Below the pieces are notes generated by a model that saw nothing but the letters and a program-made list of their open reading frames with translations, was not told where the DNA came from and searched no databases. From an uncultured Ignavibacteriaceae bacterium (GTDB lineage Bacteria; Bacteroidota; Ignavibacteria; UBA10030; BY39), in NCBI GenBank assembly GCA_964581995.1, contig CAZOQB010000008.1, forward strand, positions 77,278-141,277: a stretch of DNA of 64,000 nt, in the 5' to 3' direction. Both the position numbers and the translations under genes were made by a program. Below are positions 8,745 to 51,334 of the stretch, one piece after another (position 1 is the first letter of the stretch; every line of letters starts with the position of its first letter).

Positions 8745-10151
8745 CTAATCAGAAAATATCTTCCCCGGGTTTAAAATATTATTTGGGTCAAAGACATTTT
8801 TTATTTCTCTCATCAATTTTATCTCTATTTCCGAAAGCGCTATCGGTAAATAACTTTTCTGCGAATAACCAATGCCGTGCTCGCCCGAAATCGTACCGCC
8901 TAAACTTACAGTAAGCTCAAATATCTCTCTAATAGTCGTGTCAATATTTTTCTTCCAACTCGCATCGTCGAGTTTGTCCTTTAAAAGATTTACATGCACG
9001 TTGCCGTCGCCGGCATGACCGTAACAAATTGAAGTGATTCCGTACTTGCCACAAATTTCTTTAACACCTTGAACGAGGTGCGGCAGCTTCGCTCTCGGAA
9101 CAACTGTATCTTCCTCTTTATATGCTGAAATTGACTTTACGGCTTCACCAATTGCCCGGCGCAAAGCCCAAACATCTTCCACTTTTTGTCTTTCTTCCGC
9201 TATCAGGACATCAACTGCCTTGTGTTTCTCAACTACACTCGCTATTATTTCTATATCGCGTGTGAGTCCGTCGTCATAATTTCCGTCAACCTCAATAAGC
9301 AACTGAGCTTCGGCATCACCGTTCGGAAATCTCTTGTCAAGCTTTCCCTCCGCCGCCTTTACTGCCGATTTCTCCATAAACTCAATAGCAGAGGGTGTTA
9401 TACCGTTTTGAAAAATATCAGCTACAGCAGTGGCTGCATCTTCGAGTGAATTGAAAGCAACAAGCAGTACCTTCCTTAACTTCGGTAATGGAATTATCCT
9501 GAAAATTATTTTTGTAATAACCGCAAGCGTTCCTTCACTTCCGATAATTAATTGAGTTAGATTATAACCCGTTACGTTTTTCAGGACTTTTCCACCCGCA
9601 TTAATAATTTCACCCGTCGGCAAAACTGCTTCTATACCTAAAACATAGTCCTTTGTTCCTCCATACTTAACCGTTCGTGGACCGCTTGAAGACTCGGCAA
9701 GGTTCCCACCAAGTAAACAGCTTCCACGCGAAGCAGGGTCGGGTGGGTAAAACAAGCCGCGCTTTTCAAGTTCTTCCTGAAATGTTTGTGTAATAACTCC
9801 CGGCTCAACCGCTGCAAGAAAATTCTTTTCATCGACCTCAAGAATTTTATTAAACTTCTCCATCGAAAGACAAACTCCGCCGTGAACTGTAAGCGCACCG
9901 CCAGAAAGTCCTGTACCTCCGCCTCTTGGTGTAACTGGAAACCGGTATTCATTAGCAAGTTTTAGAATCTCAGAAATTTGCTGAGTCGTTGTGGGCTTTA
10001 CAACCACATCGGGTAAAAATTTTAAATCCTCAGTCTCGTCGTGAGAGTAATTCTCCAATGTTTCACCATCAACGAATAAATTAGCATTACCGACAATACT
10101 GGATAATCTTCCAATTATTTGAGGTGTTATCTTATTATACGTTGTCATCAA
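8745..10151 (-). CDS. FAD-linked oxidase, GlcD/D-lactate dehydrogenase family
   Basis: PRGGGTGLSGGA, YPPDPAS, GSEGTLAVIT, GHAGDGNVH, ISGEHGIG, LNPGKIF. Confidence 0.92.
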   Translation of the reverse strand: MMTTYNKITPQIIGRLSSIVGNANLFVDGETLENYSHDETEDLKFLPDVVVKPTTTQQISEILKLANEYRFPVTPRGGGTGLSGGALTVHGGVCLSMEKFNKILEVDEKNFLAAVEPGVITQTFQEELEKRGLFYPPDPASRGSCLLGGNLAESSSGPRTVKYGGTKDYVLGIEAVLPTGEIINAGGKVLKNVTGYNLTQLIIGSEGTLAVITKIIFRIIPLPKLRKVLLVAFNSLEDAATAVADIFQNGITPSAIEFMEKSAVKAAEGKLDKRFPNGDAEAQLLIEVDGNYDDGLTRDIEIIASVVEKHKAVDVLIAEERQKVEDVWALRRAIGEAVKSISAYKEEDTVVPRAKLPHLVQGVKEICGKYGITSICYGHAGDGNVHVNLLKDKLDDASWKKNIDTTIREIFELTVSLGGTISGEHGIGYSQKSYLPIALSEIEIKLMREIKNVFDPNNILNPGKIFSD

Positions 10152-10248
10152 TTATTCTTTTTCTTTAACTGCTAAGTAATATAAACAAAAGATTGTAATC
10201 TTAAAATTATTTTTTGTATCTTTTAAAAGATAACTAAAAGAGGTTGAA

Positions 10249-11013
10249 ATGAAATTTTTGAGAATCGGTATTCTTATTATTTTTTTAACGGGGAAAACAT
10301 TCGCACAAGGCTCGGCGGGTTCAAGCGGTGATTTTGAGCCGCGTTATATTATTGATATGCCGGCTGCCGGACTTATCGGGCATAATTCATACGGTATCGA
10401 TGTTGATTTTTTTCAATCAGGCGGAGTGCTATCAGGTTTTACTTACGGTTTATTGAACAGAATCAACATAGGAATTTCATACGGCGGTATTAATCTCATT
10501 GGTTCGACGAAACCGAAATGGAACAAATATCCTGGAATGAATATAAAAATCCGTCCGATCGAGGAAGGCGAGTTCTTCCCGGCAGTCGCGCTTGGTTTTG
10601 ATTCTCAGGGAAAAGAAAATTATATCGACTCTTTGGACAGGTACCTTATTAAATCACCGGGTTTATTTATTGTCTTCAGTAAAAATTTTTTAGTCTCTGG
10701 ATTTCTAACCCTCCACGGCGGTATCAATTATTCGTTAGAACGAGCTGATGGCGATAGAGATATAAACACCTACGCAGGAATCGAGAAATCTTTAACATCT
10801 TTCTTGTCCATCTTAGGTGAATATAACATTGCAATTAATGATAGCGACCCAAAAGCTTTGGGAAAAGGACGAGGTTACCTGAACTTAGGTCTGCGTGCTT
10901 CTTTAGGAAGCGGTTTTACAATCGGATTTAATTTAAAAGATGTAATAAAAAATCAGAACGACATGAGCATCGGAAACAGGACAATAAACATCGAATATGT
11001 GGGTTTCTTTTAA
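10249..11013 (+). CDS. Exported beta-barrel protein, YjbH-like
   Basis: Signal peptide; IDMPAAG start, ALGFDSQG motif, amphipathic strands, C-terminal Phe. Confidence 0.5.
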   Translation: MKFLRIGILIIFLTGKTFAQGSAGSSGDFEPRYIIDMPAAGLIGHNSYGIDVDFFQSGGVLSGFTYGLLNRINIGISYGGINLIGSTKPKWNKYPGMNIKIRPIEEGEFFPAVALGFDSQGKENYIDSLDRYLIKSPGLFIVFSKNFLVSGFLTLHGGINYSLERADGDRDINTYAGIEKSLTSFLSILGEYNIAINDSDPKALGKGRGYLNLGLRASLGSGFTIGFNLKDVIKNQNDMSIGNRTINIEYVGFF

Positions 11014-11210: not shown

Positions 11211-12197
11211 ATGAAAAACCTATTTATAGCAACCCTAACACTAATTGTGTTCACAATGTTTTTTACAGGCTGTTATACTCAATTAGGCGCTGTAAAATCC
11301 GAAAGTAGACCTATTATTGAAGAGGATTACTCATACGAACAGAGTGAAGATTATAACTACGACAGCGATACGACATATTATGATCGCAACGGTAGTACCA
11401 CTAACAATAACGATTATTTTGATGGTGGGTCTTGGTATCCTAGACACAGTTGGAGTTATTCCTACTATTACCCTTCATATTACTGGCCCTCTATTGCATT
11501 TGGTTATGTGTACAACGATCCATGGTTTTACGACCGCTACTGGTACTATGACCCTTGGATTTGCGGAACGCCATGGATTTACTACCCCGCATATTACTAT
11601 CCGTCTTTTTATTACCCGCCGTATTACACAAATTATTGGTGGGCAGATAACTACACTGTAACAAGTACAGGTACTGTTACAAAAACCAGGCGCGATTTTG
11701 GAAACTCACGCGATAATGACAAACGTGGCAATACAGCTATTGACGACCGAACAGACCGATTGCCTACCCGCAGCGGATATGACCTGCCGACGGGTGTCGG
11801 AGTTACGGGTTCTGGAGGACGCTCGGCTGCTGGAAAAACAAGTGAGGTACAAAGACCATCGCGCGGAACAAGTTCATCAAGAGAAGTTGCACCAAGAAGT
11901 TCAGATAGATCGCGTCGAAGCGATAGTCCAAGTTCTGGCTCACGCCGTGAACGTTACGAGCGAACCGATCGTGGTCAATCAACTCCGCCCCCAAGCGGAC
12001 CGTCAAGAGGTTCTGAGAGTACTCCAAGACGTGACGACGGAACTTCAACACGGACATACACACCACCGCCATCTGCTCCTGCACCATCAGCACCGGCACC
12101 GTCTTCGCCACCACCATCAAGAGGCGGTGATTCGCGCGGCGGAAGCAACGACAACAACCAAGGTTCGCGCAGCGGCAGTAACCGAGGCGGCAGATAG
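11211..12197 (+). CDS. Lipoprotein with Tyr/Trp/Pro-rich core and Arg/Gly/Ser/Pro-rich disordered tail
   Basis: Lipobox FTGC after hydrophobic leader (ATG 11211); low-complexity C-terminal half. Confidence 0.75.
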   Translation: MKNLFIATLTLIVFTMFFTGCYTQLGAVKSESRPIIEEDYSYEQSEDYNYDSDTTYYDRNGSTTNNNDYFDGGSWYPRHSWSYSYYYPSYYWPSIAFGYVYNDPWFYDRYWYYDPWICGTPWIYYPAYYYPSFYYPPYYTNYWWADNYTVTSTGTVTKTRRDFGNSRDNDKRGNTAIDDRTDRLPTRSGYDLPTGVGVTGSGGRSAAGKTSEVQRPSRGTSSSREVAPRSSDRSRRSDSPSSGSRRERYERTDRGQSTPPPSGPSRGSESTPRRDDGTSTRTYTPPPSAPAPSAPAPSSPPPSRGGDSRGGSNDNNQGSRSGSNRGGR

Positions 12198-41132: not shown

Positions 41133-41175
41133 AATTTTTCAATCATTTTGGCATTGATTAATTTTTGTTTCTGAT

Positions 41176-41203
41176 AAAGCCAACCTTTTGAGTTGGCTTT
41201 TTT
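41176..41203 (+). terminator. Intrinsic terminator
   Basis: AAAGCCAAC..GTTGGCTTT followed by a T run. Confidence 0.8.
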
Positions 41204-41232
41204 AATGGGCTCAAATAGGTTACAAGCGAATT

Positions 41233-41403
41233 ATGTGGTATATTGAAAACAAAAGGGATAAACCAATGTTGAGTCTAAGAATGCCAAAAAAAGTTATAAA
41301 ACCAGCGGTTCAGAAAGTTAATAATTTCTGGGATAATAGAGAACAAATTGTTAATAAGGCAAGAAAAGAAAAAGAGAAGAAAGACTTACGAAAAGGTGCA
41401 TAG
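41233..41403 (+). CDS. Small hypothetical protein (56 aa, Lys-rich)
   Basis: Hand-translated ORF MWYIENKRDKPMLSLRMPKKVIKPAVQKVNNFWDNREQIVNKARKEKEKKDLRKGA, below the ORF-track cutoff. Confidence 0.4.
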   Translation: MWYIENKRDKPMLSLRMPKKVIKPAVQKVNNFWDNREQIVNKARKEKEKKDLRKGA

Positions 41404-41439
41404 AAGCTGTATTAGACAAATTCCTATGGATAAAAGATT

Positions 41440-41613
41440 ATGTCAGGATTAACTAAAAAAGAAAGAATAAAACGATCCACTTTTGATATTACAGTTTTTG
41501 AAAAAGCCTATAATATTGATTTGAAAAAGTGGTATGGTAAAGATCTGTACGGTGATAGTAAATTAAGTGCAGAGTATCTTATTGAAGTAAGCCGACTTAG
41601 AGAACAAAGATAG
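41440..41613 (+). CDS. Small hypothetical protein (57 aa)
   Basis: Hand-translated ORF MSGLTKKERIKRSTFDITVFEKAYNIDLKKWYGKDLYGDSKLSAEYLIEVSRLREQR. Confidence 0.45.
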   Translation: MSGLTKKERIKRSTFDITVFEKAYNIDLKKWYGKDLYGDSKLSAEYLIEVSRLREQR

Positions 41614-41645
41614 ATTAATATGCCATAAATTAAAACAGAAGAGAT

Positions 41646-41819
41646 ATGACAAAACAATTTGAGATGTTAAAAATTTTCCTGACCAAAGAACAAGTGGGAA
41701 AAATTATTGATGACAAATTTAGTAATGAAGAATGGGAATTATTTACAACTTATGTAAAAAACTTTAAAACAGAGAAATTAGTTTACTTGTTATATAATAA
41801 ATGGAATGAATCAGTATAG
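41646..41819 (+). CDS. Small hypothetical protein (57 aa)
   Basis: Hand-translated ORF MTKQFEMLKIFLTKEQVGKIIDDKFSNEEWELFTTYVKNFKTEKLVYLLYNKWNESV, with purine-rich GAAGAG upstream. Confidence 0.45.
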   Translation: MTKQFEMLKIFLTKEQVGKIIDDKFSNEEWELFTTYVKNFKTEKLVYLLYNKWNESV

Positions 41820-41949
41820 GTGTTATAGATCCCAACACTATGCAAAGTAAAAATATTGAATGGTAGAATATTAATTATATTGACACAAATAAATAAGAGA
41901 ATACTCTAAACCCCCAACGAATTAAATAAATTAAAACAAGAAGAAACAA

Positions 41950-41981
41950 AAAGCCCCAGTGAAAATATTTGCTGGGGCTTT
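41950..41981. terminator. Hairpin terminator, probably bidirectional
   Basis: AAAGCCCCAG..CTGGGGCTTT. Confidence 0.7.
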
Positions 41982-41997
41982 CTATTTACAAAGGGGG

Positions 41998-42026
41998 TTG
42001 ACTTTTATTGCAGAGGTTCTTACTAT
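41998..42026 (+). promoter_or_regulatory. Near-consensus sigma70 promoter
   Basis: TTGACT, 17-nt spacer, TACTAT. Confidence 0.55.
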
Positions 42027-42106
42027 CTAATTCTTTTGTTCGAACTCATCCCCTATCTGAGTTTAAACAAAAATCCGGGCTTGACCAAAAAGTAAAATTA
42101 TTCATT

Positions 42107-42228
42107 GTGAAGCTTTGTGCCTTTGGGTTTTTGTGGCAAAATAAGTGTGTCTATTAAATATAAATGAACTCATTGCCACGAAGGCGCCAAGTCACTAAGG
42201 TACGAAGAACACAGAGGCACACAAAGAC
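42107..42228. repeat. Low-complexity palindromic element (CACAAAG/CTTTGTG class)
   Basis: CTTTGTGCCTTTGGGTTTTTGTGGCAA..TTGCCACGAAGGCGCCAAGTCACTAAG..CACACAAAG. Confidence 0.6.
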
Positions 42229-42246
42229 TTTCGAGACAACGCCGGT

Positions 42247-42276
42247 GACTTTGTTCAAAACTTGTCGGGGGTTGAG
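42247..42276 (+). repeat. 30-bp direct repeat, left copy
   Basis: GACTTTGTTCAAAACTTGTCGGGGGTTGAG, identical to 48539-48568. Confidence 0.95.
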
Positions 42277-42337
42277 ACCATTTTATAGACTTTTAGCACA
42301 GCCTCCATCACTCAGCGACAAATCCCAAATTAGAAAA

Positions 42338-42637
42338 TTATATAATCAATTTATTTTTATCAATCTCTTTCATAATCCTCTCCGTCTCTGCAAGCGCGAC
42401 AATCATTTTCTGATAATGCTCGATATCGGCATTGGTAAGTGTACGACCTTTACGATCCTTTAGCCATTTCTGTGCAGGTTGGTAGCCGCCGATGTAGAAG
42501 TTCCAAGCAGTTTCTGGGACATTACCAAAGTATTGGTCTCTGTTCATAAATACTTTGTTATCTTTGTACACCAATTTCTCAACAGTGTCTGAGCCGTTTA
42601 CCGGATATGTAGTAATAAATTTATTTACTTTCGGCTC
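42338..42637 (-). pseudogene. C-terminal fragment of the single-chain R-M gene
   Basis: EPKVNKF..WNFYIGGYQPAQKWLKDR..KNKLII; about 16 differences over about 98 aa versus the end of ORF 44818-47892. Confidence 0.92.
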
Positions 42638-42671
42638 CTAACAGAGACGTTTACTAATGTATTTTTAGTTT

Positions 42672-42830
42672 CGAGTCCTTTAGGACTCGTATGTCTGTAG
42701 CACGATATCGAAAAATAATATTCCGCTCCGTAGGAGCGGTATGTCTCAATCAGTTTCAACATTCGACCCCTCTGGGGTCGGTATTGTTTTTCTATTTTCT
42801 TTCTACAAACATTCGACTTCTAACGGAGTC
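42672..42830. repeat. REP cluster (four short hairpins)
   Basis: CGAGTCCTTTAGGACTCG, CCGCTCCGTAGGAGCGG, CGACCCCTCTGGGGTCG, GACTTCTAACGGAGTC. Confidence 0.85.
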
Positions 42831-42939
42831 CATAATATCTAAAACTTATTCAAGCTATGATTCTTTATGCAAAACTGAATGCACGACAAGTGAAACTGCC
42901 GTGCTTTCCCGCTATGATCCCAGTTTACAGTTTGGACCG

Positions 42940-43707
42940 TTAATCTTTTATGAAACCAGCTTCTTTCCTGATTTGAGGAACTTGATCTTTTGCACGTATT
43001 AAATCCTCCTTAGGAAGTAAATCCCACGCTCTCTTCATAGTAGATTGATAAAACTCTTTCATAGCATTTGCTATAGTATTATGAACTCCGGGGTCATACA
43101 ATGGAATATCTTTTTGTATCCCCGAATAATAAGATTCACCTTTCACGGCAAGATCTATTTGTGGAATAGGCAAACTTTTAACTATTAATTTTTGCTTGGT
43201 AAATGTTTCTGAAATATACAGTGTTATTTTCCCGCTGAGAGTTAGAGTCCCTTCATATTCGGAAACAGTTTGTTTACCATCTGATCCCATAGGTATATAT
43301 GTCCAACCTCCTGATGTTTGGTCAATGTTTAATTTGATATCAGCAGATAAACCTAATTCACATTCGGTTTTGTCTGAATAAGTCATTAAATCATATTGTT
43401 CATAAGGACCTTTTAGAATATATCCTCGTGCCGTTAATATTTCTTCTAAATCATTTCCCATACTGGAACGAAATTGTTTAAATGGTGATTTATTTGAATA
43501 CACGAAATCTTCCGGATAAATGGGGTCGAACAAAGCAATTTTTAATCCTGCACTACCAGGCGCTGCAGAGCTTGGCGGCGAAAAATCAAAATCAGGAATT
43601 ACTATAGGTGTACGTGTTGTTATTCTCTCCTGTGTTGCACAAGCCGGAAACAATAATGCGAACACAATGAGTGTCGCTGACGAGTAAAGGTTCTTTTTCA
43701 TTTTCAT
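42940..43707 (-). CDS. Hypothetical lipoprotein
   Basis: Leader ending LFPAC; no recognised domain. Confidence 0.7.
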   Translation of the reverse strand: MKMKKNLYSSATLIVFALLFPACATQERITTRTPIVIPDFDFSPPSSAAPGSAGLKIALFDPIYPEDFVYSNKSPFKQFRSSMGNDLEEILTARGYILKGPYEQYDLMTYSDKTECELGLSADIKLNIDQTSGGWTYIPMGSDGKQTVSEYEGTLTLSGKITLYISETFTKQKLIVKSLPIPQIDLAVKGESYYSGIQKDIPLYDPGVHNTIANAMKEFYQSTMKRAWDLLPKEDLIRAKDQVPQIRKEAGFIKD

Positions 43708-43741
43708 TGTTATTAATTGTTAGTAATTATTTGTTGAATTT

Positions 43742-43763
43742 ATTATATAATCAATTTATTTTT
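43742..43763. repeat. 22-bp copy of the R-M gene stop-codon region
   Basis: ATTATATAATCAATTTATTTTT, identical to 42337-42358. Confidence 0.75.
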
Positions 43764-43774
43764 TACATATGGTC

Positions 43775-43830
43775 GTCAGCAACCGTTTGCTGACAAAAAC
43801 ATTTTACTGTCGTGAAATGGTTCACGACAG
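43775..43830. repeat. Two REP-like hairpins
   Basis: GTCAGCAACCGTTTGCTGAC and CTGTCGTGAAATGGTTCACGACAG. Confidence 0.75.
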
Positions 43831-43917
43831 CCGGGCTTTAAAATTTTTATAATGAAAAATATAAATCATTGTCGCAAAGGTATAAGTTAGCAAATCATTT
43901 TTAATGTAGTTCTTTTC

Positions 43918-44799
43918 CTACTTTTTTAACCATGAGATTATTTTTGAATTTATATCGGTTCTTACCTTTCTGAGTTCATGATCATCATTCAACATATGAA
44001 TCTCCAGATTTGCTGCTCCCTGCTTTTGCAGCGAACGATAAAGCGGAAGAATGTGGTCTTCAATTGTTACACCAGAATCGAGCCAGCCACCGAATAAAAG
44101 TATATCCTTTTTCGCAAGCTTATCTGCAAAATTTTTAAGGTTATATTCCTCTTTATGTTGTAACAACCATTCGTAAGATGCTTTCCCTCCTGGTCCACGG
44201 GATCTGGATGTATCCGACATGCACCTGTCCAGGATTCGTTCATGTAATCTCCTGAAATCAAGATCTTGTTCATACATCGTGGCCCAAACACTCAAATCTG
44301 CACCCGCAATCGAACATACTTTCCTGACAGAATTATCGTATAGGGAACCTAACAGAGCCAGTCCACCCCCATAGCTGTTGCCAATTAATGATATATTTGA
44401 TGTATCAATAGAATATTTCTTTATTGTTTGATCCAATTTTAGGAAATCAATCGCTGAATTTACATTTTTAAGTGAAGTCTCCGGTGACCAAATTCCTTTA
44501 CTTGACCATGTACCACTATAACTGAAGGTAAGGACATTAAAACCAGCTTCTGCTAGTGTATGTGCAAGTTCAAATATTAAATAATCTTTTCCGCAATAGC
44601 CATGCAGTAAAATCACTGTTGAGGAAAATTCTTTCGCCTTAGCTTTGTAGAACCAACCATGAATATTATCTCCGTAACTGTTAAAGTTAATTTCATTGGG
44701 ATTATCTGTTTCATTCTGTGCAAGTAGTAATGAAACTGGCAAAAAATAAAGAATTATTAACAGAAAAACTAGATTAGTAAAACAATTCTTTTTTTTCAT
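43918..44799 (-). CDS. Exported alpha/beta hydrolase
   Basis: Signal peptide; LLHGYCG, SYSGTWSSKG, nucleophile GNSYGG, late D and DH residues. Confidence 0.85.
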   Translation of the reverse strand: MKKKNCFTNLVFLLIILYFLPVSLLLAQNETDNPNEINFNSYGDNIHGWFYKAKAKEFSSTVILLHGYCGKDYLIFELAHTLAEAGFNVLTFSYSGTWSSKGIWSPETSLKNVNSAIDFLKLDQTIKKYSIDTSNISLIGNSYGGGLALLGSLYDNSVRKVCSIAGADLSVWATMYEQDLDFRRLHERILDRCMSDTSRSRGPGGKASYEWLLQHKEEYNLKNFADKLAKKDILLFGGWLDSGVTIEDHILPLYRSLQKQGAANLEIHMLNDDHELRKVRTDINSKIISWLKK

Positions 44800-44817
44800 T
44801 TTATTTCCCCCTTATAA

Positions 44818-47800
44818 TTAAACAATCAATTTACTTTTATCGACCTCTTTCATAATCCTCTCCGTCTCTGCAAGTGCCACAATTATTTTCTGATAATGCT
44901 CGATATCGGTGTTTGTAAGAGTTCTGCCATTGCGGTCTTTAAGCCATTTCTGTGCTGGCTGATAGCCGCCGATGTAAAAGTTCCACGCAGATTCCGGGAC
45001 TTTGCCAAAGTACTGGTCTTTGTTGATATAAACACAAGAGTCTTTGTAAATTATTTTTTCGACTGTATCTGAGCCGCTTACAGGATAGGTTGTTATAAAC
45101 TTATTTACCTTAGGTGATTCGAGGAGATGGAGTGAACGCAATTCAGCGCCAAGGGCAACAAGTTTTTTAAAACTCTTTGCATCTTTTGGATACGGCACAC
45201 GCGGGAAATCTATTTTTAAAAACTCTTTGTATTTCTCGCGATAACTCGGTGAGTGTAGAACTGCATAGATATAATCAAGAATATCTTCGGGAGTAACTTT
45301 GCCGACAATCTTTTCTATCTCTTTAACAATTTCTTTTTTGAGATTTGGAATTTTTGATCCGTCTTCGGCATATACATAGAGGGGTAATAATGATTCGCTA
45401 CCCTTGTTATCAGATCGTATGTAGCCATCTGCCATAATTTTATTGGATATGAAGAAGTATGACGTTTTATCTTCTGCCATCTGACGACGAACAACCAATC
45501 CGACATTCTCTTGTAACGAGTGCTTCATTATCTGGTATCTGGACCGCTCGATAAAATCATCGTGATAGTAAATAAATCGATTATCAAATGGGCGATAACT
45601 AATTGGTACTAAATTTTTATCATCATAATTATGTTTTAAAGCATTTATAGCTCGCCAGTTCATATTTTCTTTTAGTCCAAATTTTATCATTGCCTCTTGT
45701 GGCGTTGCACTCGAAAGAAAACCATTGATTCGTTTTTTAAGAATTTTATTATCGTAATCAATTACAAAATCGTCGCGTGAAGTTACAATACCTACACTTG
45801 AAATAGAGAATAGATCGGCAACGGAAAATCCCTTTTTATACTCACCCAAAATATTTGTATCCCGAACAACCCATTCATAATTTGGACTTGATGGAGTAAT
45901 GGATTTCCATTTTACCGAATCGATTGAATTAGTATTAAGAAACTCAAACTTTGATTGGCGAGTGCCGAAACTATCTGCAAGAAATATCCTAGTGGCTTTA
46001 TTCTTACTAGCTTTCCTTCTTATTCCCAAGAAGATCGCGACGCCCTGTTTAATATCAAAGACATTTTTATCTTCACTTCCATCTGGTGCTTTCTCTTTTT
46101 TATTGGCGTTACCGTGCAAGTCAAGCACATATATTTCATCAAATGTACTCATAAGATGATAGCGCATTCCGCGAAATGTCGGGTTGTCAATATATCCATG
46201 AGCAGTAATCATTGCTACGATACCCTCACCCGTTTTTTCAATCATGCTTTCGGCAAATCTGATAAATTTCACATAGTCGTCACTTAGCCATTTAGAATTC
46301 CGTTCCTGTAATTTTCCACCCGATGGTTCTGTTTTATAGACATCATTGCCAGTATATGAGGCATTGCTTGATTCACCAGAATACGGTGGGTTACCAATTA
46401 CTACCATAATAGGCGATTCGTTCTTTATAACCGATGCTTCTTTGGATTCATCTGCAATACTTTCAGCAAAACCAAAACCAGTAAACAGGTCTGCTTTGGT
46501 CGCACCTTCTTCGAGAGAATTTGTAAGATAAATACCAAGCCGGCGGTTAAAATATTTAAATCCCGTTTCTTTAAACGCCATACTCAACTTCAGGTGGGCT
46601 ATAGTATATGGCGCCATCATAAGCTCAAATCCGTGCAGTCGCGGCAGCAAATCGTTATGCACGTATGTGGTCCAGCGCCCCTTCTGTCCATCCTTAAGTA
46701 ACCGTTCGTAGATTATACGAATAACAGCGCTAATGAATGTGCCTGTCCCGACAGCCGGATCAAGAACCTGAACCCGGTGCAGACCGGTTGCTGTTTTTGA
46801 TGTGTCGGCTAAACCGGAAGCGAGACCAAAATCTTTTTCAAGTAAGTAATCAACAGAACGCACAATGAACCGCACCACCGGCAGAGGCGTATAAAACGCA
46901 CCCATCTTTTTCCTGAGTTCGGGATCGTATTCTTTTAAAAAGTCTTCATAAAAATGAATTACGGGGTCGGGTCCCTCTTGCGTTTTTCCCCACGAATCAT
47001 CTTTGAAATATTGCTTCATCAACTCCGGAACATCGGCATGGGAAAAAACCGAGCACAACTCATTTACAATATACTCAAGCCGTTTGTCAAAATTTGGTCC
47101 AACTATGTGGTCAAAGAAATGCCGAAGCAGAGGGTTTGATGCCGGCACGAGGTCGCGGGCTTCCTGCCGTGTAAAGTTTTCAGGCGTTGTATCGTGATAC
47201 CTTGCTACAAAAAGACCATAGACAAGAGTTTGCGCATACATATCCGCGAAAGATTCTTCTGTAAGGTCGTGCACAAGAAGTTTTTTAATCGTATCATGTA
47301 CACGTATTATCTCAGCGTTTTTTTCCGACTTATTTGAAAGAAATTGTTTGACGTTATCCCGTATCCTTTGCGCTTTACCACCCATAATTTTTGATAAGTG
47401 CTCTCCCGACCGGATCGGTTCTTTATGCGATTGCGTGAAATCAACTAATGTCTTGGCAACGTGGTCAAAATTTTCCGGTATAGCTACAATCTTTCTATGC
47501 TTAATATCATAATCCGCAATCTTGATTGGAGTTTGATAGGATAAACCGTTTCTGTAAAAACGAAATTCAACATAATCTGTCAGAACTAAATTGGCATAGC
47601 CAAAATATCTTGCCATCTGCTCGGACTTCTCCACTTTATCCAAAGACACGCCAATATCTTTCGCTTCGATATATAAAATTGGCACATCGTGGTTAAGTAC
47701 AACAAAGTCCGGCTTGTTCCCTTGCTTTGCTTTTGCATCGTGATCTATACGCCGCACATTGATTGACTCGAAAATTCCCTTTAATAAAATTTCAAAGTCG

Positions 47801-47907: not shown

Positions 47908-48129
47908 TCAGGACTCGAATTCCTTTGTTGGCAGATGCGATTGACGCATAATGGATTTCAGAGTTCCGAATTTGATCTCTTCGTGGTTAGGAACGGGAAC
48001 AGTAATTGTTGAGGAGCCGGTTTTCTTCTGCATAATAATGTGGCTCCCACGCTGACGAACTTTCTGAAAACCGTGTTTGGAAAGGATATGACAGACCTCT
48101 TTGCCAGAGAGGATTCGCATTTTAGCCAA
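47908..48129 (-). CDS. hicA: HicA family toxin
   Basis: RQRGSHIIMQK..TVPVPNHEEIKFGTLKSIMRQ. Confidence 0.9.
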   Translation of the reverse strand: MAKMRILSGKEVCHILSKHGFQKVRQRGSHIIMQKKTGSSTITVPVPNHEEIKFGTLKSIMRQSHLPTKEFES

Positions 48130-48349
48130 CGGCTACCTCTAAGCGAGTGACAAAAACTTCGTCATGCAAGCGTTCACGAATTTCTTTACTTGAAGCCGTT
48201 TCAAAAAATAATTCGATTGCTTCTTTGAGATTCTTTCGAGCCTCTTCGACGGTTTCACCCTGACTGGCAATATCGAGTTCAGGACATAGAGCAACATACA
48301 TATTGTCCTCTCGTTCAATGACAGCTGTAAATTGATGTCTTTTCGGCAT
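48122..48349 (-). CDS. hicB: HicB family antitoxin (short form)
   Basis: YVALCPELDIASQGETVEEARKNLKEAIELF; overlaps hicA. Confidence 0.9.
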   Translation of the reverse strand: MPKRHQFTAVIEREDNMYVALCPELDIASQGETVEEARKNLKEAIELFFETASSKEIRERLHDEVFVTRLEVAVG

Positions 48350-48457
48350 TTTAAAAACCTTCTTTCTTGATTGATCTGGAATTAATGATACTATAAAGTT
48401 AATATAGCATACATTCCCTAAAATGTCAATGTGAGAGGTTTGAGGTTGGGTAGTTGC

Positions 48458-48522
48458 GGACAGACTGAAAGTCCGTCCTACCGGGTACGATTCAACCGGT
48501 ACGACATGCTTTTAGCATGTCG
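48458..48522. repeat. GTAG-type REP hairpins
   Basis: Minus strand GTAGGACGGACTTTCAGTCTGTCC; GTACGACATGCTTTTAGCATGTCG. Confidence 0.7.
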
Positions 48523-48538
48523 ATAGGCAGAGAAGGGG

Positions 48539-48616: not shown

Positions 48617-48706
48617 CGGGCCGAAGCTCTGTCTGCGCGCTATTTTTGGTAGGAACGCACAGACAGGCTTCATTTAAAGTATCACGGGAGGAATGATACT
48701 TACCCT
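48617..48706. repeat. 90-bp structured direct repeat, left copy
   Basis: Identical to 50392-50481; two hairpins GAAGC-TCTGTCTGCG..CGCACAGACAGGCTTC and AAGTATCA..TGATACTT. Confidence 0.97.
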
Positions 48707-48731
48707 TGAATTATTATTACATTCCAGCTTA

Positions 48732-50195
48732 TCATCTCATCAATATCATTTTCTTGGTCTCAATAAAAACTTGTTCTGAGAGAAGCGAAGGATCAACGGC
48801 AACTAATCTGTAGTAATACACACCGCTTGTTACACCTCCTGCGTTCCAGAATAAAGAGTATTCACCTTTTTCTTTCTTCTCTTGAGCGAGTGTTGCTACT
48901 TCCCTGCCCAACAGGTCATACACTTTTAGCGTAATATAACTTTCTCTTGGTACTGAGAAAGATATTTTTGTTTGTGGATTGAAGGGATTTGGATAATTCG
49001 CAGCTAATGCGAAGCTGCCAGTAACATTTGCTCGTTCGTTTACATCGGTGATAAGCATTTGCCAAGTAAGGGTATCTTTCTGGGAATTCTGCCATGCGCT
49101 GCTGTTCCATGTTTGGCATAATTCCTCTGTTATGTTTTTATTTGCATCGTAGGTGTAAGTGTATTTCAACCAATTCACCCACAAACTAGCGTTCCACGTT
49201 TGGTATAACACCTCTGTCCTGTTTTTATTTGAATCATAGGTGTGACTGGATTTAGTATCATTCACCCACGAAGTAGCGTCCCATGTTTGGTATAACCAGT
49301 CTGTCATGTTTCCATTTGCATCGTAGGTGTAAGTGTGTTTGTAAATATCCTCCCACAAACTGCCGTCCCATGTTTGGCATAACCAGTCTGTCATGTTTCC
49401 ATTTGCATCGTAGGTGTAAGTGTGTTTAGTCTCATTCACCCACGAACTTGTGTTCCATGTTTGGTATAACACCTCTGTCCTGTTTTTATTTGAATCATAG
49501 GTGTAGCTGGATTTAGTCTCATTCACCCACGAACTAGTGTTCCAGTTTTGGCATAACGCCTCTATCCTGTTTTTATTTGAATCATAGGTGTAACTGGATT
49601 TAAACTCATTCTCCCACACACTGCCGTTCCATGTTTGGCATAACATGTCTGTCGTGTTTCCATTTGCATCGTAGGTGTAACTGTATTTCACCCAATTCAC
49701 CCACAAACTGTCGTTCCATATTTGGTCTAACCAGTCTGTCATTTTTTCATTTGCATCGTAGGTGTAAGTGTGTTTAGTCTCATTCACCCACACACTGCCG
49801 TCCCATGTTTGGTATAACCAGTCTGTCATTTTTCCATTTGCATCGTAGGTGTAAGTGTGTTTAGTCTCATTCACCCACACATTTGTAAGCGTATCCCATA
49901 ACTGAAATACATCAGAAATCTGTAGATACATCGTATCTGATAGAACCTTAGTAAACTTATCTACTCTTCTATCGGCAAATTTTATATTGAAAAATAATCC
50001 CAGCTCATTCCGGAACTGTTGTTCAATGTGAATTCTAGGATGATGAGGGTATTGCGCGCGCGCGCTATCCACAATCTTTTCCTGAATGAACGTCTGGCAA
50101 TTGTATATGTTTTCCTTTTTCTGAGAGAACACCAACACTGTAAAAGAAACTGTAAGCATCACGATGGCGCTAAAAACAATCGCAAAGCTCTTCAT
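48732..50195 (-). CDS. T9SS type A sorting-domain protein with nine 29-aa repeats
   Basis: Signal peptide; repeats like ETKHTYTYDANGNMTDWLYQTWDGSVWVN; C-terminal NYPNPFNPQTKISF..LKVYDLLGREVATL. Confidence 0.9.
   Translation of the reverse strand: MKSFAIVFSAIVMLTVSFTVLVFSQKKENIYNCQTFIQEKIVDSARAQYPHHPRIHIEQQFRNELGLFFNIKFADRRVDKFTKVLSDTMYLQISDVFQLWDTLTNVWVNETKHTYTYDANGKMTDWLYQTWDGSVWVNETKHTYTYDANEKMTDWLDQIWNDSLWVNWVKYSYTYDANGNTTDMLCQTWNGSVWENEFKSSYTYDSNKNRIEALCQNWNTSSWVNETKSSYTYDSNKNRTEVLYQTWNTSSWVNETKHTYTYDANGNMTDWLCQTWDGSLWEDIYKHTYTYDANGNMTDWLYQTWDATSWVNDTKSSHTYDSNKNRTEVLYQTWNASLWVNWLKYTYTYDANKNITEELCQTWNSSAWQNSQKDTLTWQMLITDVNERANVTGSFALAANYPNPFNPQTKISFSVPRESYITLKVYDLLGREVATLAQEKKEKGEYSLFWNAGGVTSGVYYYRLVAVDPSLLSEQVFIETKKMILMR
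49085..49880. repeat. 87-bp intragenic tandem repeats
   Basis: TTAGTCTCATTCACCCAC recurs at 49774 and 49861 (period 87); about nine units. Confidence 0.9.
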
Positions 50196-50313
50196 AAGCT
50201 CACCTTATATTTTGTGTTTGAATGATGATTTGAAATAAAAAATAATGAAAATAAAACAGCTTGTCAAGAAAAAAACGAAGAAAATAGTAAATAATATTGT
50301 TTCCAGAAGAAAT

Positions 50314-50350
50314 AAAAAAGCCACAAACATGTAACAGACATTTGTGGCTT
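50314..50350 (-). terminator. Intrinsic terminator in the leader of the T9SS gene
   Basis: Minus strand AAGCCACAAA..TTTGTGGCTT followed by T run, about 120 nt upstream of the start at 50195. Confidence 0.8.
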
Positions 50351-50391
50351 GAAGCGGGAACGCTTTATAAACAAGAAACCTAAAAAATAAT

Positions 50392-50481
50392 CGGGCCGAA
50401 GCTCTGTCTGCGCGCTATTTTTGGTAGGAACGCACAGACAGGCTTCATTTAAAGTATCACGGGAGGAATGATACTTACCCT
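50392..50481. repeat. 90-bp structured direct repeat, right copy
   Basis: Identical to 48617-48706. Confidence 0.97.
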
Positions 50482-50544
50482 AATATCATTTTCATTAAAA
50501 ATATTACCGTTACCTTCATAAATCTCCTACAGTATTTCACACTC

Positions 50545-50627
50545 TGTGGACCCTGTAGGACTTGTCCCGAAGGGATTCCGTGAATAAAAGACTTTTTATG
50601 AACGGAAAACCTACGACCACACGGATT
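50545..50627 (-). pseudogene. Copy of the tRNA 3' half with a 43-nt hairpin insertion in the T-loop
   Basis: TGTGGACCCTGTAGGACTTG [TCCCGAAGGGA TTCCGT..ACGGAA] AACCTACGACC matches the tRNA sequence TGTGGGCCCTGTAGGACTTGAACCTACGACC. Confidence 0.8.
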
Positions 50628-50635
50628 GTTTTTTG

Positions 50636-50709
50636 TGGGCCCTGTAGGACTTGAACCTACGACCCGCAGATTATGAGTCTGCTGCTCTAACCAACTGAGC
50701 TAAGGGCCC
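50636..50709 (-). tRNA. tRNA with CAT anticodon, most likely tRNA-Ile2 (lysidine type)
   Basis: GGGCCCTTAGCTCAGTTGGTTAGAGCAGCAGACTCATAATCTGCGGGTCGTAGGTTCAAGTCCTACAGGGCCCA; cloverleaf intact; resembles ileX-type tRNAs; CCA not encoded. Confidence 0.92.
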
Positions 50710-50776
50710 CGCATGTTGCTCATATTTCGTTTAAAATATAAGAATTTCAGTTAAAAAAAACAAGGAGAGAATTTAT

Positions 50777-51334
50777 CTAATCCTTTTTCAGCAAAACAGC
50801 GTGGCTCCGCTTTATGATTAGTGTATCGACTTGTGTAAATCCGGCAGCAACGGCAAGCGAAAGTGTTTCGTCAAACTCTTCTTTGGTTACATGTCCGGTA
50901 GGCTCGGAAACCAAAACTATTCCACCTTTTTTGAGCGAATTAAAAATCTCAACGAAAAAATTTTTCGGGTCGGGAATTTCATGCACAACGGCAAACGCCA
51001 GAGCAAAATCTATTTTACCGGTCAGGTCTTCAATCTTAAGCGAATCCTGCGTACACAACCGCGTGTCAATCCGCCATAACAACCCTGCTTTATCAGCACG
51101 CTTCCGGAGACTGTTTAACATTCTTTCCTGCAATTCCACACATATAACCTGCCCGGACTCACCCACTAATTTCGCCAGCGGTAAGCTAAAGAATCCCATA
51201 CCCGGACCGATTTCGAGGACAGTCATTCCCGCTTTGACGTACGGATTTAAAATGTTTTCGGGATGTTGAAATAACCGCCGAAAAGGACTTGCCAGCAGAT
51301 AACCTATGTACCACGGGCACACATGATTTTCCAT
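50777..51334 (-). CDS. Class I SAM-dependent methyltransferase
   Basis: VLEIGPGMGFF, VELQERML, FAVVHEIPD..LKKGG. Confidence 0.9.
   Translation of the reverse strand: MENHVCPWYIGYLLASPFRRLFQHPENILNPYVKAGMTVLEIGPGMGFFSLPLAKLVGESGQVICVELQERMLNSLRKRADKAGLLWRIDTRLCTQDSLKIEDLTGKIDFALAFAVVHEIPDPKNFFVEIFNSLKKGGIVLVSEPTGHVTKEEFDETLSLAVAAGFTQVDTLIIKRSHAVLLKKD

Follow-up and report, generated by a model that had tools for sequence, protein, structure and literature searches.

How does the 3′ end of one restriction-modification (R-M) gene come to stand three times within 2.5 kb, with unrelated genes lodged between the copies? The question is raised by a 64,000-nt stretch of DNA from an uncultured Ignavibacteriaceae bacterium (contig CAZOQB010000008.1, positions 77,278 to 141,277; hereafter the window, whose first letter is position 1), in which a small hypervariable defense islet lies 5.8 kb downstream of a tRNA-Met gene. 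The host is an Ignavibacteria-like groundwater bacterium. Along the minus strand, the islet presents the R-M gene, an alpha/beta hydrolase gene, two hairpins, a 22-nt copy of the R-M tail (the 22-mer), a lipoprotein-like gene, a cluster of hairpins resembling repetitive extragenic palindromic (REP) elements, and a 300-nt R-M fragment. A sequence-only reading of the window had given this order and its positions, accurately in every detail as judged by sequence, Pfam and repeat searches, and had proposed that the R-M terminus is a repeatedly used integration target, with each event adding a gene for an exported protein.

All three copies are genuine R-M 3′ ends, and the locus is real and non-random, a variant of displacement arrays combined with R-M allelic turnover. 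The mechanism favored here, with roughly even confidence, is serial displacement of 3′ ends, with the conserved R-M gene as the anchor and with later recombination among the termini left behind. The junctions that define the locus recur in Logan contigs assembled from other runs of the window strain and in two assemblies from ENA. Because several independent assemblies carry identical junctions, an assembly artefact is ruled out.

The three copies of the R-M terminus

The intact gene, here termed R-M(A), occupies 47892-44818 on the minus strand (1024 aa), and its tail, counted as the first copy, is AAAAGTAAATTGATTGTTTAAT (44838-44817, minus strand), which takes in the stop codon TAA and 1 nt beyond it. 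The second copy is the 22-nt relic AAAAATAAATTGATTATATAAT at 43763-43742 (minus strand), with a stop codon inside. The third is the 3′ fragment of a further gene, R-M(B), at 42637-42338 (minus strand), 300 nt long with 99 open codons. The 22-mer has exactly two occurrences, at 43763-43742 and at 42358-42337, and the match between them extends on neither side. The last 22 nt of fragment B, including one base past its stop, are identical to the 22-mer, an identity noted previously, and the intact tail, earlier called similar, agrees with it at 19 of 22 positions.

The chance of such a repeat, for which an estimate under a local AT-rich model had been called for, was computed with Markov models of order 0-3 trained on the window, on the island, or on the island's AT-rich intergenic DNA alone. 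The 22-mer is expected at ~3e-12 to 1e-11 per site, which amounts to <=1.4e-6 per window and, for the 2.5 kb that separates the copies, to <=5.5e-8. A repeated 20- or 22-mer appeared in none of 40 composition-preserving block shuffles of the window, and the other exact repeats of at least 20 nt in the window are all genuine repeats. Markov expectations and block shuffles together rule out a chance origin of the 22-mer.

Tails in the R-M family vary after “...IMKEID”, and the DKNKLI ending is also found in homologs from Ignavibacteriaceae (L017) and Bacteroidetes (L009). A counterpart of the junction itself is seen in L092, a 1036-nt contig whose lipoprotein gene is 91% identical to that of the window. 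This contig begins GAAAGAGATCGATAAAGGTAAATTGATTATTTAA, reads ...KEIDKGKLII-stop, and passes directly into the same lipoprotein leader and later into part of the same hairpin cluster, such that a 34-nt R-M-like tail holds the position of the window 22-mer. Since an R-M-like tail abuts the lipoprotein leader there, the 22-mer is the relic of a genuine R-M gene end at a real junction.

Fragment B retains a Pfam match to Type_ISP_C (3.3e-20), and its 5′ side is cut off where the REP cluster starts. It agrees with the end of R-M(A) at 240 of 300 nt, which corresponds to about 80-81% nucleotide and about 83-84% amino acid identity. The codon differences comprise 32 synonymous and 17 non-synonymous changes, and A and B therefore diverged as working genes under purifying selection. 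Furthermore, fragment B is closer to L098 (83.9% nucleotide identity) and L009 (82.1%) than to R-M(A) (80.9%), and its protein shares 84-89% of amino acids with other homologs. By these comparisons fragment B is a different allele and no copy of the resident gene's end. Being a diverged allele, it rules out a recent duplication of that end, and the view of the 300-nt copy as a duplicated target is not supported.

As in displacement arrays, orphan 3′ pieces (22 and 300 nt) lie downstream of an intact gene in the same orientation, and an orphan derives from another allele; the R-M gene of the related strain sampled in run X4 likewise differs in its recognition region and C-terminus, with flanks at 94-100% identity. 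Homology among the three copies, as well as between the two copies at locus L046 described below, reaches no farther than the stop codon or the nucleotide that follows it.

The X4 strain is closely related to that of the window, and X4 contigs match the window at 99-100% identity over 41157-42276 and in parts of 48677-51000. L092 is taken to be the 1036-nt contig of this run, with which it agrees in length and position. Depth in X4 is zero over 43824-44621 and 0.09 over 44622-44735, an interval that covers most of the hydrolase gene, and the sister strain thus lacks the hydrolase. Its R-M gene is 94.5% identical to R-M(A) over the N-terminus together with HicAB, is unalignable across ~1 kb of the recognition region, and returns to ~87% at the C-terminus; this strain has another recognition region and another C-terminus. 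The R-M 3′ fragment is kept in X4 as well. It contains an in-frame 24-nt insertion there, adjoins the REP cluster and runs into the same downstream flank. As the R-M end, lipoprotein gene, REP cluster and 3′ fragment are all present in X4, this architecture is older than the split of the two strains, and the hydrolase segment is a later difference. From 5 differences in a 121-nt contig, we guess that the two tails are mutually identical in X4 too. Candidate empty-site joints in X4 and X5 have matches of only 27-52 nt, the window repeats being 22, 33, and 300 nt long. A joint of 42911 to 43770 in X5, which gives the appearance of a missing lipoprotein gene, was left aside, since a REP-like hairpin makes up its 47-nt side.

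Contigs from run X6, an unrelated metagenome, bear on whether the tails recombine. In a 613-nt contig (depth 4.6, 94-97% identical to the window), the second hairpin and the 15 nt with which the 22-mer copy starts (43806-43749) are fused to 44823-44519, a side that comprises the final 6 nt of R-M(A) plus the leader and the 5′ part of the hydrolase gene. At the joint, 10 nt fit either side. It constitutes a head-to-tail junction of a 1075-bp unit made up of tail, hydrolase, and hairpins, wherein the tail is a hybrid of relic and A, and hairpin 2 and the start of the 22-mer, down to 43749, are kept as one unit. Because these copies join tail to tail, R-M termini do recombine. The X6 hydrolase copy carries an in-frame 498-nt deletion, and ~69 nt beyond this copy lies a further R-M 3′ piece. 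The part that was deleted is present in a second X6 contig. A 1120-nt contig of the same run holds only a 53-nt R-M tail relic (44819-44871) with unrelated DNA on both sides, and the sequence after its stop, GGCGGCATAACGAGC, resembles the start of an attC site.

The R-M gene family and its neighbors

R-M(A) matches Type_ISP_C (1.7e-90), N6_Mtase (1.8e-11), and Eco57I in Pfam, REase_MTase_IIG in PADLOC (2e-296), and structure 7lo5 in the PDB (1.4e-58). Its parts are an N-terminal PD-(D/E)xK-like segment, an N6-adenine methyltransferase, a variable target recognition region at residues ~560-850, and a conserved C-terminal segment of ~100 aa. With methyltransferase and target recognition fused in one protein similar to known enzymes of the class, R-M(A) is of Type IIG. 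The putative nuclease has a weak HSDR_N match (4.7e-4), under the curated cutoff, and a D...EAK motif can be read in its sequence. Identity as a Type ISP enzyme (LlaGI/LlaBIII) is ruled out by length (1024 aa vs. 1406-1578 aa) and by Pfam and PDB searches that returned no helicase family; the matches of R-M(A) to 5ffj and 4xqk cover only the methylase and recognition part of those structures (query 299-987).

Within the family, sequence conservation is strongly uneven. P0017/L098 is 92-96% identical to R-M(A) in the first 400 residues, 81% at 400-560, only 37-41% at 560-850, and 95% at the C-terminus. From this profile, the recognition region has been exchanged between R-M alleles with the backbone kept in P0017/L098, a substitution of recognition domains that is described for Type IIG genes in PMC2853133. 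The N-terminal/methylase part and the last ~100 codons are strongly conserved among alleles, even across phyla, and homology between genomes breaks off with the stop codon or 1 nt beyond. The 120 best matches listed are 66-81% identical, and the family is found in many phyla at 65-81% amino acid identity, in a different context each time. Eighty related loci (L009-L088) were surveyed, from Bacteroidota, Ignavibacteria, many Patescibacteria, Elusimicrobia, proteobacteria, and one archaeal metagenome-assembled genome (MAG). The family is very mobile. Decayed copies also exist, in L048 and in L066, where N- and C-terminal parts are fused through an internal deletion. In the latter, an Ignavibacteria MAG, positions 9818-10315 encode a 165-aa in-frame fusion of the first ~55 and last ~105 R-M residues, followed by an overlapping HNH nuclease gene.

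The proposal that genes downstream of homologous R-M genes are bounded by copies of the terminus was examined in this survey. By tblastn, a second copy of the C-terminal domain was found at none of the 80 loci. In the 76 with enough downstream DNA, a nucleotide screen for tail relics brought out one further case, L046, and the other loci and the upstream controls gave a background of 10-14 nt. L046 belongs to a Parcubacteria MAG, and there the R-M gene's final 29 nt, stop included, stand in two exact copies (10302-10330 and 12122-12150), the second of them 1.79 kb downstream of the gene's own. The tail differs in sequence from that of the window and has no hairpin. Between its copies lie an HTH-Panacea antitoxin-like gene, a small putative toxin partner without a family match, and one more open reading frame (ORF). 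An independent second instance of tail duplication thus exists, and a terminus duplication among the homologs stands beside a 22-mer far beyond chance expectation; with 1 of 80 other loci showing it, generality of the pattern is not supported.

Close downstream neighbors are common in the family. An ORF on the same strand begins within 150 nt of the R-M stop in 54 of the 76 loci and within 40 nt in 38, often overlapping it. These 54 ORFs, which fall into 46 singletons and 4 pairs, are almost all mutually unrelated, and no conserved downstream partner gene emerges among them. Eight of ten that were tested matched a Pfam family, mostly of defense-island or mobile-DNA type (OLD/AAA_15, SIR2_2, DUF3800, HNH, SLFN_AlbA_2, NYN, ORF6N, Y1 transposase). 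A hydrolase, lipoprotein, or HicAB gene near the R-M gene was seen at 0 of the 80 loci. The expectation that exported proteins form the regular cargo is not supported, given the toxin-antitoxin-like cargo of L046 and the defense-type neighbors of other loci; the exported cargo of the window is incidental.

Passenger genes and surroundings

The gene next to R-M(A), at 44799-43918 (minus strand, 293 aa), is the younger of two passengers in the favored order of events. It starts with an ATG 18 nt past the R-M stop, has an N-terminal signal-peptide-like segment, and matches Abhydrolase_1 and related families in Pfam, which bears out its earlier label as a hydrolase. Its closest relatives outside the strain (83-86% amino acid identity) are on three JGI (Joint Genome Institute) contigs, L094, L095, and L096, where they are true integron cassettes. 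The cassettes with a hydrolase homolog start TTATGCAC... and end ...GTGCATAAC-(attC)-G. Their arrays are co-oriented, contain toxin-antitoxin and exported-protein cassettes, and share a ~130-nt attC family in which 12 of 16 pairs covary. L094 also has a tyrosine-recombinase C-terminal remnant just upstream of its hydrolase cassette. The window gene has only ~20 nt of leader in common with the cassette homologs and nothing past the stop. Judging from these relatives, it appears once to have been an ORF of an integron cassette and now to stand outside the integron system.

An integron was sought at the locus itself. A covariance model, R1, built from the 7 attC sites of L094-L096 and representing one attC family, recovers all of them (E 1e-28 to 1e-32) and, with filters on or off, finds no attC in the window or in the lipoprotein loci; the best window match has E 0.1 and lies within coding sequence. 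Earlier attC scans based on motif and arm pairing were set aside as too crude, arm pairing having missed most positive controls. Tblastn with a tyrosine-recombinase C-terminal query gave no window match better than E 0.3, and no integrase ORF was found in the 38-52 kb part, to which the Pfam scan was confined, by ORF listing or Pfam. The purpose-built attC model and the recombinase search, both negative, rule against an integron or an array of the attC-cluster kind.

Two perfect stem-loops follow the hydrolase gene on the minus strand, at 43830-43807 (10-bp stem) and 43794-43775 (8-bp stem); they resemble terminators or REP elements. Past the 22-mer stands the other passenger, at 43707-42940 (minus strand, 255 aa), lipoprotein-like by its lipobox-like N-terminus, as had been recognized, and without a Pfam family. 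It has 64 homologs, whose named sources are mostly MAGs of Ignavibacteriaceae or Bacteroidota. Five of these (70-82% amino acid identity) sit in five different contexts with no conserved synteny around the gene; in one, L093, homology starts ~35 nt before the ATG and stops just past the stop codon. Between this gene and the R-M fragment, the REP-like cluster of short G+C-rich stem-loops extends over 42930-42650 (minus strand) and includes perfect 7-bp stems at 42672-42689, 42723-42739, and 42764-42780. The hairpins noticed in the sequence-only reading are thereby located.

The entire R-M unit, from its conserved promoter/hairpin region to 62 nt past the stop of fragment B, is enclosed by a 33-nt direct repeat. 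The left copy (48568-48536, minus strand) adjoins the start of the promoter/hairpin region, and the right copy (42276-42244, minus strand) marks the other end; homology to L098 spans 48401-48532, beginning right beside the left copy. As the unit is bracketed in this way and ends 62 nt after B, fragment B looks like the original end of the R-M unit at this site. The repeat copies are identical at 32 of 33 positions, 30 nt of them exact, with ~40 nt of weaker similarity upstream of the repeat. Between the promoter region and the R-M start lies a HicB/HicA toxin-antitoxin pair (47908-48349, minus strand, by Pfam), which is missing in L098 and in the X5/X6 contigs, where the promoter directly joins the R-M gene.

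Farther out, the tRNA-Met gene (50635-50709, minus strand) has a partial copy of its own 3′ end ~70 nt downstream (50546-50568, 20 of 23 nt), which looks like an old integration or excision scar. The tRNA is the sole match of an Rfam scan. A 90-nt perfect direct repeat with internal palindromes (48617-48706 and 50392-50481), for which Rfam has no match, flanks a gene (48732-50195) for a repeat protein with a tail of the type IX secretion system (T9SS). The repeat may be a miniature inverted-repeat transposable element, an attachment site, or an RNA. The T9SS-tailed protein measures 487 aa in the window and in ERZ27284381, and 458 aa in ERZ27284377, another assembly of the same strain; this size difference is a repeat-number polymorphism. 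Exact-protein look-ups of the flanking genes matched the window strain only.

Mechanism, rival explanations and known systems

Serial displacement would begin with incoming DNA that carries another R-M allele. Given the conservation of the N-terminal/methylase part and of the last ~100 codons, such an allele could recombine homologously inside the resident gene, within its conserved part, and the far end of the donor, with its downstream cargo, would join near the end of the resident gene, either illegitimately or through short tail homology. Each displacement would strand the last nucleotides of the resident gene downstream. At this locus, an original R-M(B) unit bracketed by the 33-nt direct repeat would have been displaced by an allele with the lipoprotein gene and REP hairpins, with the last 300 nt of B remaining. 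Gene conversion would then have homogenized the two 3′ ends. Finally, in the window lineage, allele A with the hydrolase, a former integron cassette ORF, and the two hairpins would have displaced the earlier 3′ part and left 22 nt of it. The stranded termini may subsequently serve as short direct repeats that recombine with one another and reshuffle the modules between them. We infer both the order of these events and the homology-facilitated illegitimate join. Sequential displacement that orphans 3′ regions together with downstream genes has been reported for effector-immunity arrays of type VI secretion systems (T6SS), for which homology-facilitated illegitimate recombination was proposed (PMC5361080), and the same orphan-array displacement is described there for rhs loci.

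Displacement anchored in the gene predicts that the repeats end at the stop or 1 nt after, because R-M homology between genomes stops there; random intergenic insertion does not. It is also the best-fitting account of the differing relic lengths (22, 29, and 300 nt), of the allele differences, and of the strain differences in which a swap of the recognition region and C-terminus is paired with gain or loss of a passenger. The identity of relic and B tail is most simply put down to gene conversion between two 300-nt repeats before the arrival of allele A and the hydrolase, and target duplication would explain it too. Several points weigh against this favored mechanism. The 22/22 identity requires an extra assumption, either prior gene conversion or an insertion that duplicated the gene end. 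No donor in which R-M(A) precedes the hydrolase was found among the 80 genome loci, in a JGI metagenome scan, or in the protein database, and the nearest hydrolases outside the strain are 83% identical. The evidence from X4, X5, and X6 consists of short low-depth assembler contigs, not reads, and the X6 head-to-tail junction would equally fit an excised circular cassette.

The perfect agreement between relic and B tail (22/22) and between the L046 copies (29/29) is what would be seen in duplicates born identical, and might instead reflect insertion of a lipoprotein-REP segment, and later of the hydrolase segment, after the R-M stop, with a target duplication of 22-300 nt and later overwriting of the intact copy by allelic exchange. 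Target duplications longer than 30 bp, the length criterion applied in PMC2853133, are documented at R-M loci, and the whole R-M unit in the window is itself enclosed by a 33-nt direct repeat. However, in the published cases given there, the R-M genes are the insert and not the duplicated target. Insertion also leaves it unexplained that the repeat ends exactly at the stop or 1 nt after; the intact tail and the relic disagree at 3 of 22 positions, the intact gene's end differs from B by 20% across 300 nt, and an empty site for the lipoprotein unit did not turn up. Such insertion is judged unlikely. Harder to credit is that hydrolase and lipoprotein genes were resident, and that two or three mobile R-M genes landed beside them at different times and then decayed. 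The family does occur in many phyla in a different context each time, decayed copies are known elsewhere (L066, L048), and the locus lies downstream of a tRNA gene with an integration scar. Yet three landings in the same orientation would be required within 2.5 kb, the 22/22 identity of two tails would go unexplained, and the lipoprotein homologs show no conserved synteny. Moreover, since the hydrolase is absent from the near-identical sister strain and related to integron cassettes, it is no resident gene. This sequence of landings is very improbable.

The recombination-site model of the sequence-only reading would make the R-M terminus, with a core of about AAATTGATT, the point at which promoterless cassettes integrate and excise through a recombinase encoded elsewhere, as integron cassettes do. 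The genes are indeed all co-oriented and closely packed, the hydrolase ORF comes from a genuine integron cassette family, hairpin 2 and the start of the tail are conserved together, the pattern recurs in L046, and the X6 junction of the 1075-bp hydrolase unit, with its 10 shared nt, is as expected from a circle or a tandem integration. However, searches brought up neither a recombinase in the 64-kb window nor an attC-like element in the island, and repeat lengths of 22, 29, and 300 nt speak against a fixed crossover point. The L046 tail is of another sequence and lacks a hairpin, and of the 76 other loci whose downstream sequence sufficed, only one has the pattern. Because the X6 hydrolase copy is partly deleted and followed by different DNA, that contig is better read as a chromosomal rearrangement than as a clean circle. 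The model seems quite unlikely. Repeated use of the terminus is supported by separate events that placed genes behind it (X4, X6, L046); a dedicated integration system is not, for want of a recombinase or attC. Similarly doubtful is the idea that the conserved R-M terminus is a portable landing pad, at whose short tail core promoterless modules, former integron ORFs included, are captured, excised, and exchanged without an integron integrase. Arrays would on that idea form behind an addictive, constitutively expressed gene, and the X6 junction and L046 duplication would be further instances.

That R-M genes move and swap recognition domains is known, but how defense islets gain unrelated neighbors is poorly understood. 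The window locus, the sister strain, the recombinant contig, and L046 together suggest that serial displacement could supply a mechanism, in which a conserved defense gene acts as a homology anchor that drags in foreign downstream genes. If this is general, stranded termini are datable scars from which the order of acquisition in defense islands could be reconstructed, and conserved mobile genes would be carriers by which genes pass from one lineage to a distant one. The locus is, in addition, a case of an integron cassette ORF that has left its integron.

Among known systems, integron cassette arrays and attC clusters without an integrase share the co-oriented, packed, promoterless-looking ORFs and the repeated, partly structured boundaries; here, neither attC nor IntI was found, and the boundaries consist of coding-sequence pieces that vary in length. 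Islands integrated in gene 3′ ends (tRNA, tmRNA, or protein-coding) are similar in that direct repeats of the gene 3′ end flank the added DNA, but differ from this locus, which has modules of 1-1.4 kb and neither an integrase nor a fixed core. The Type IIG R-M loci of PMC2853133 share the enzyme class, the swap of recognition regions at one locus, and the direct repeats flanking R-M units; a term search of the paper returned no category of stranded gene termini with passengers in between. The likeness to the effector-immunity arrays of rhs, contact-dependent inhibition (CDI), and T6SS loci lies in alleles that overwrite a gene and turn old 3′ pieces and downstream genes into orphans (PMC5361080 and the rhs work it cites). 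Unlike in toxin arrays, the stranded genes here are not immunity genes but unrelated passengers (a hydrolase, a lipoprotein, a toxin-antitoxin module), and the relics number only two. Finally, polymorphic toxin loci combine a conserved 5′ with a variable 3′ part, whereas at this locus the extreme C-terminus is conserved and the anchor is a Type IIG R-M gene.

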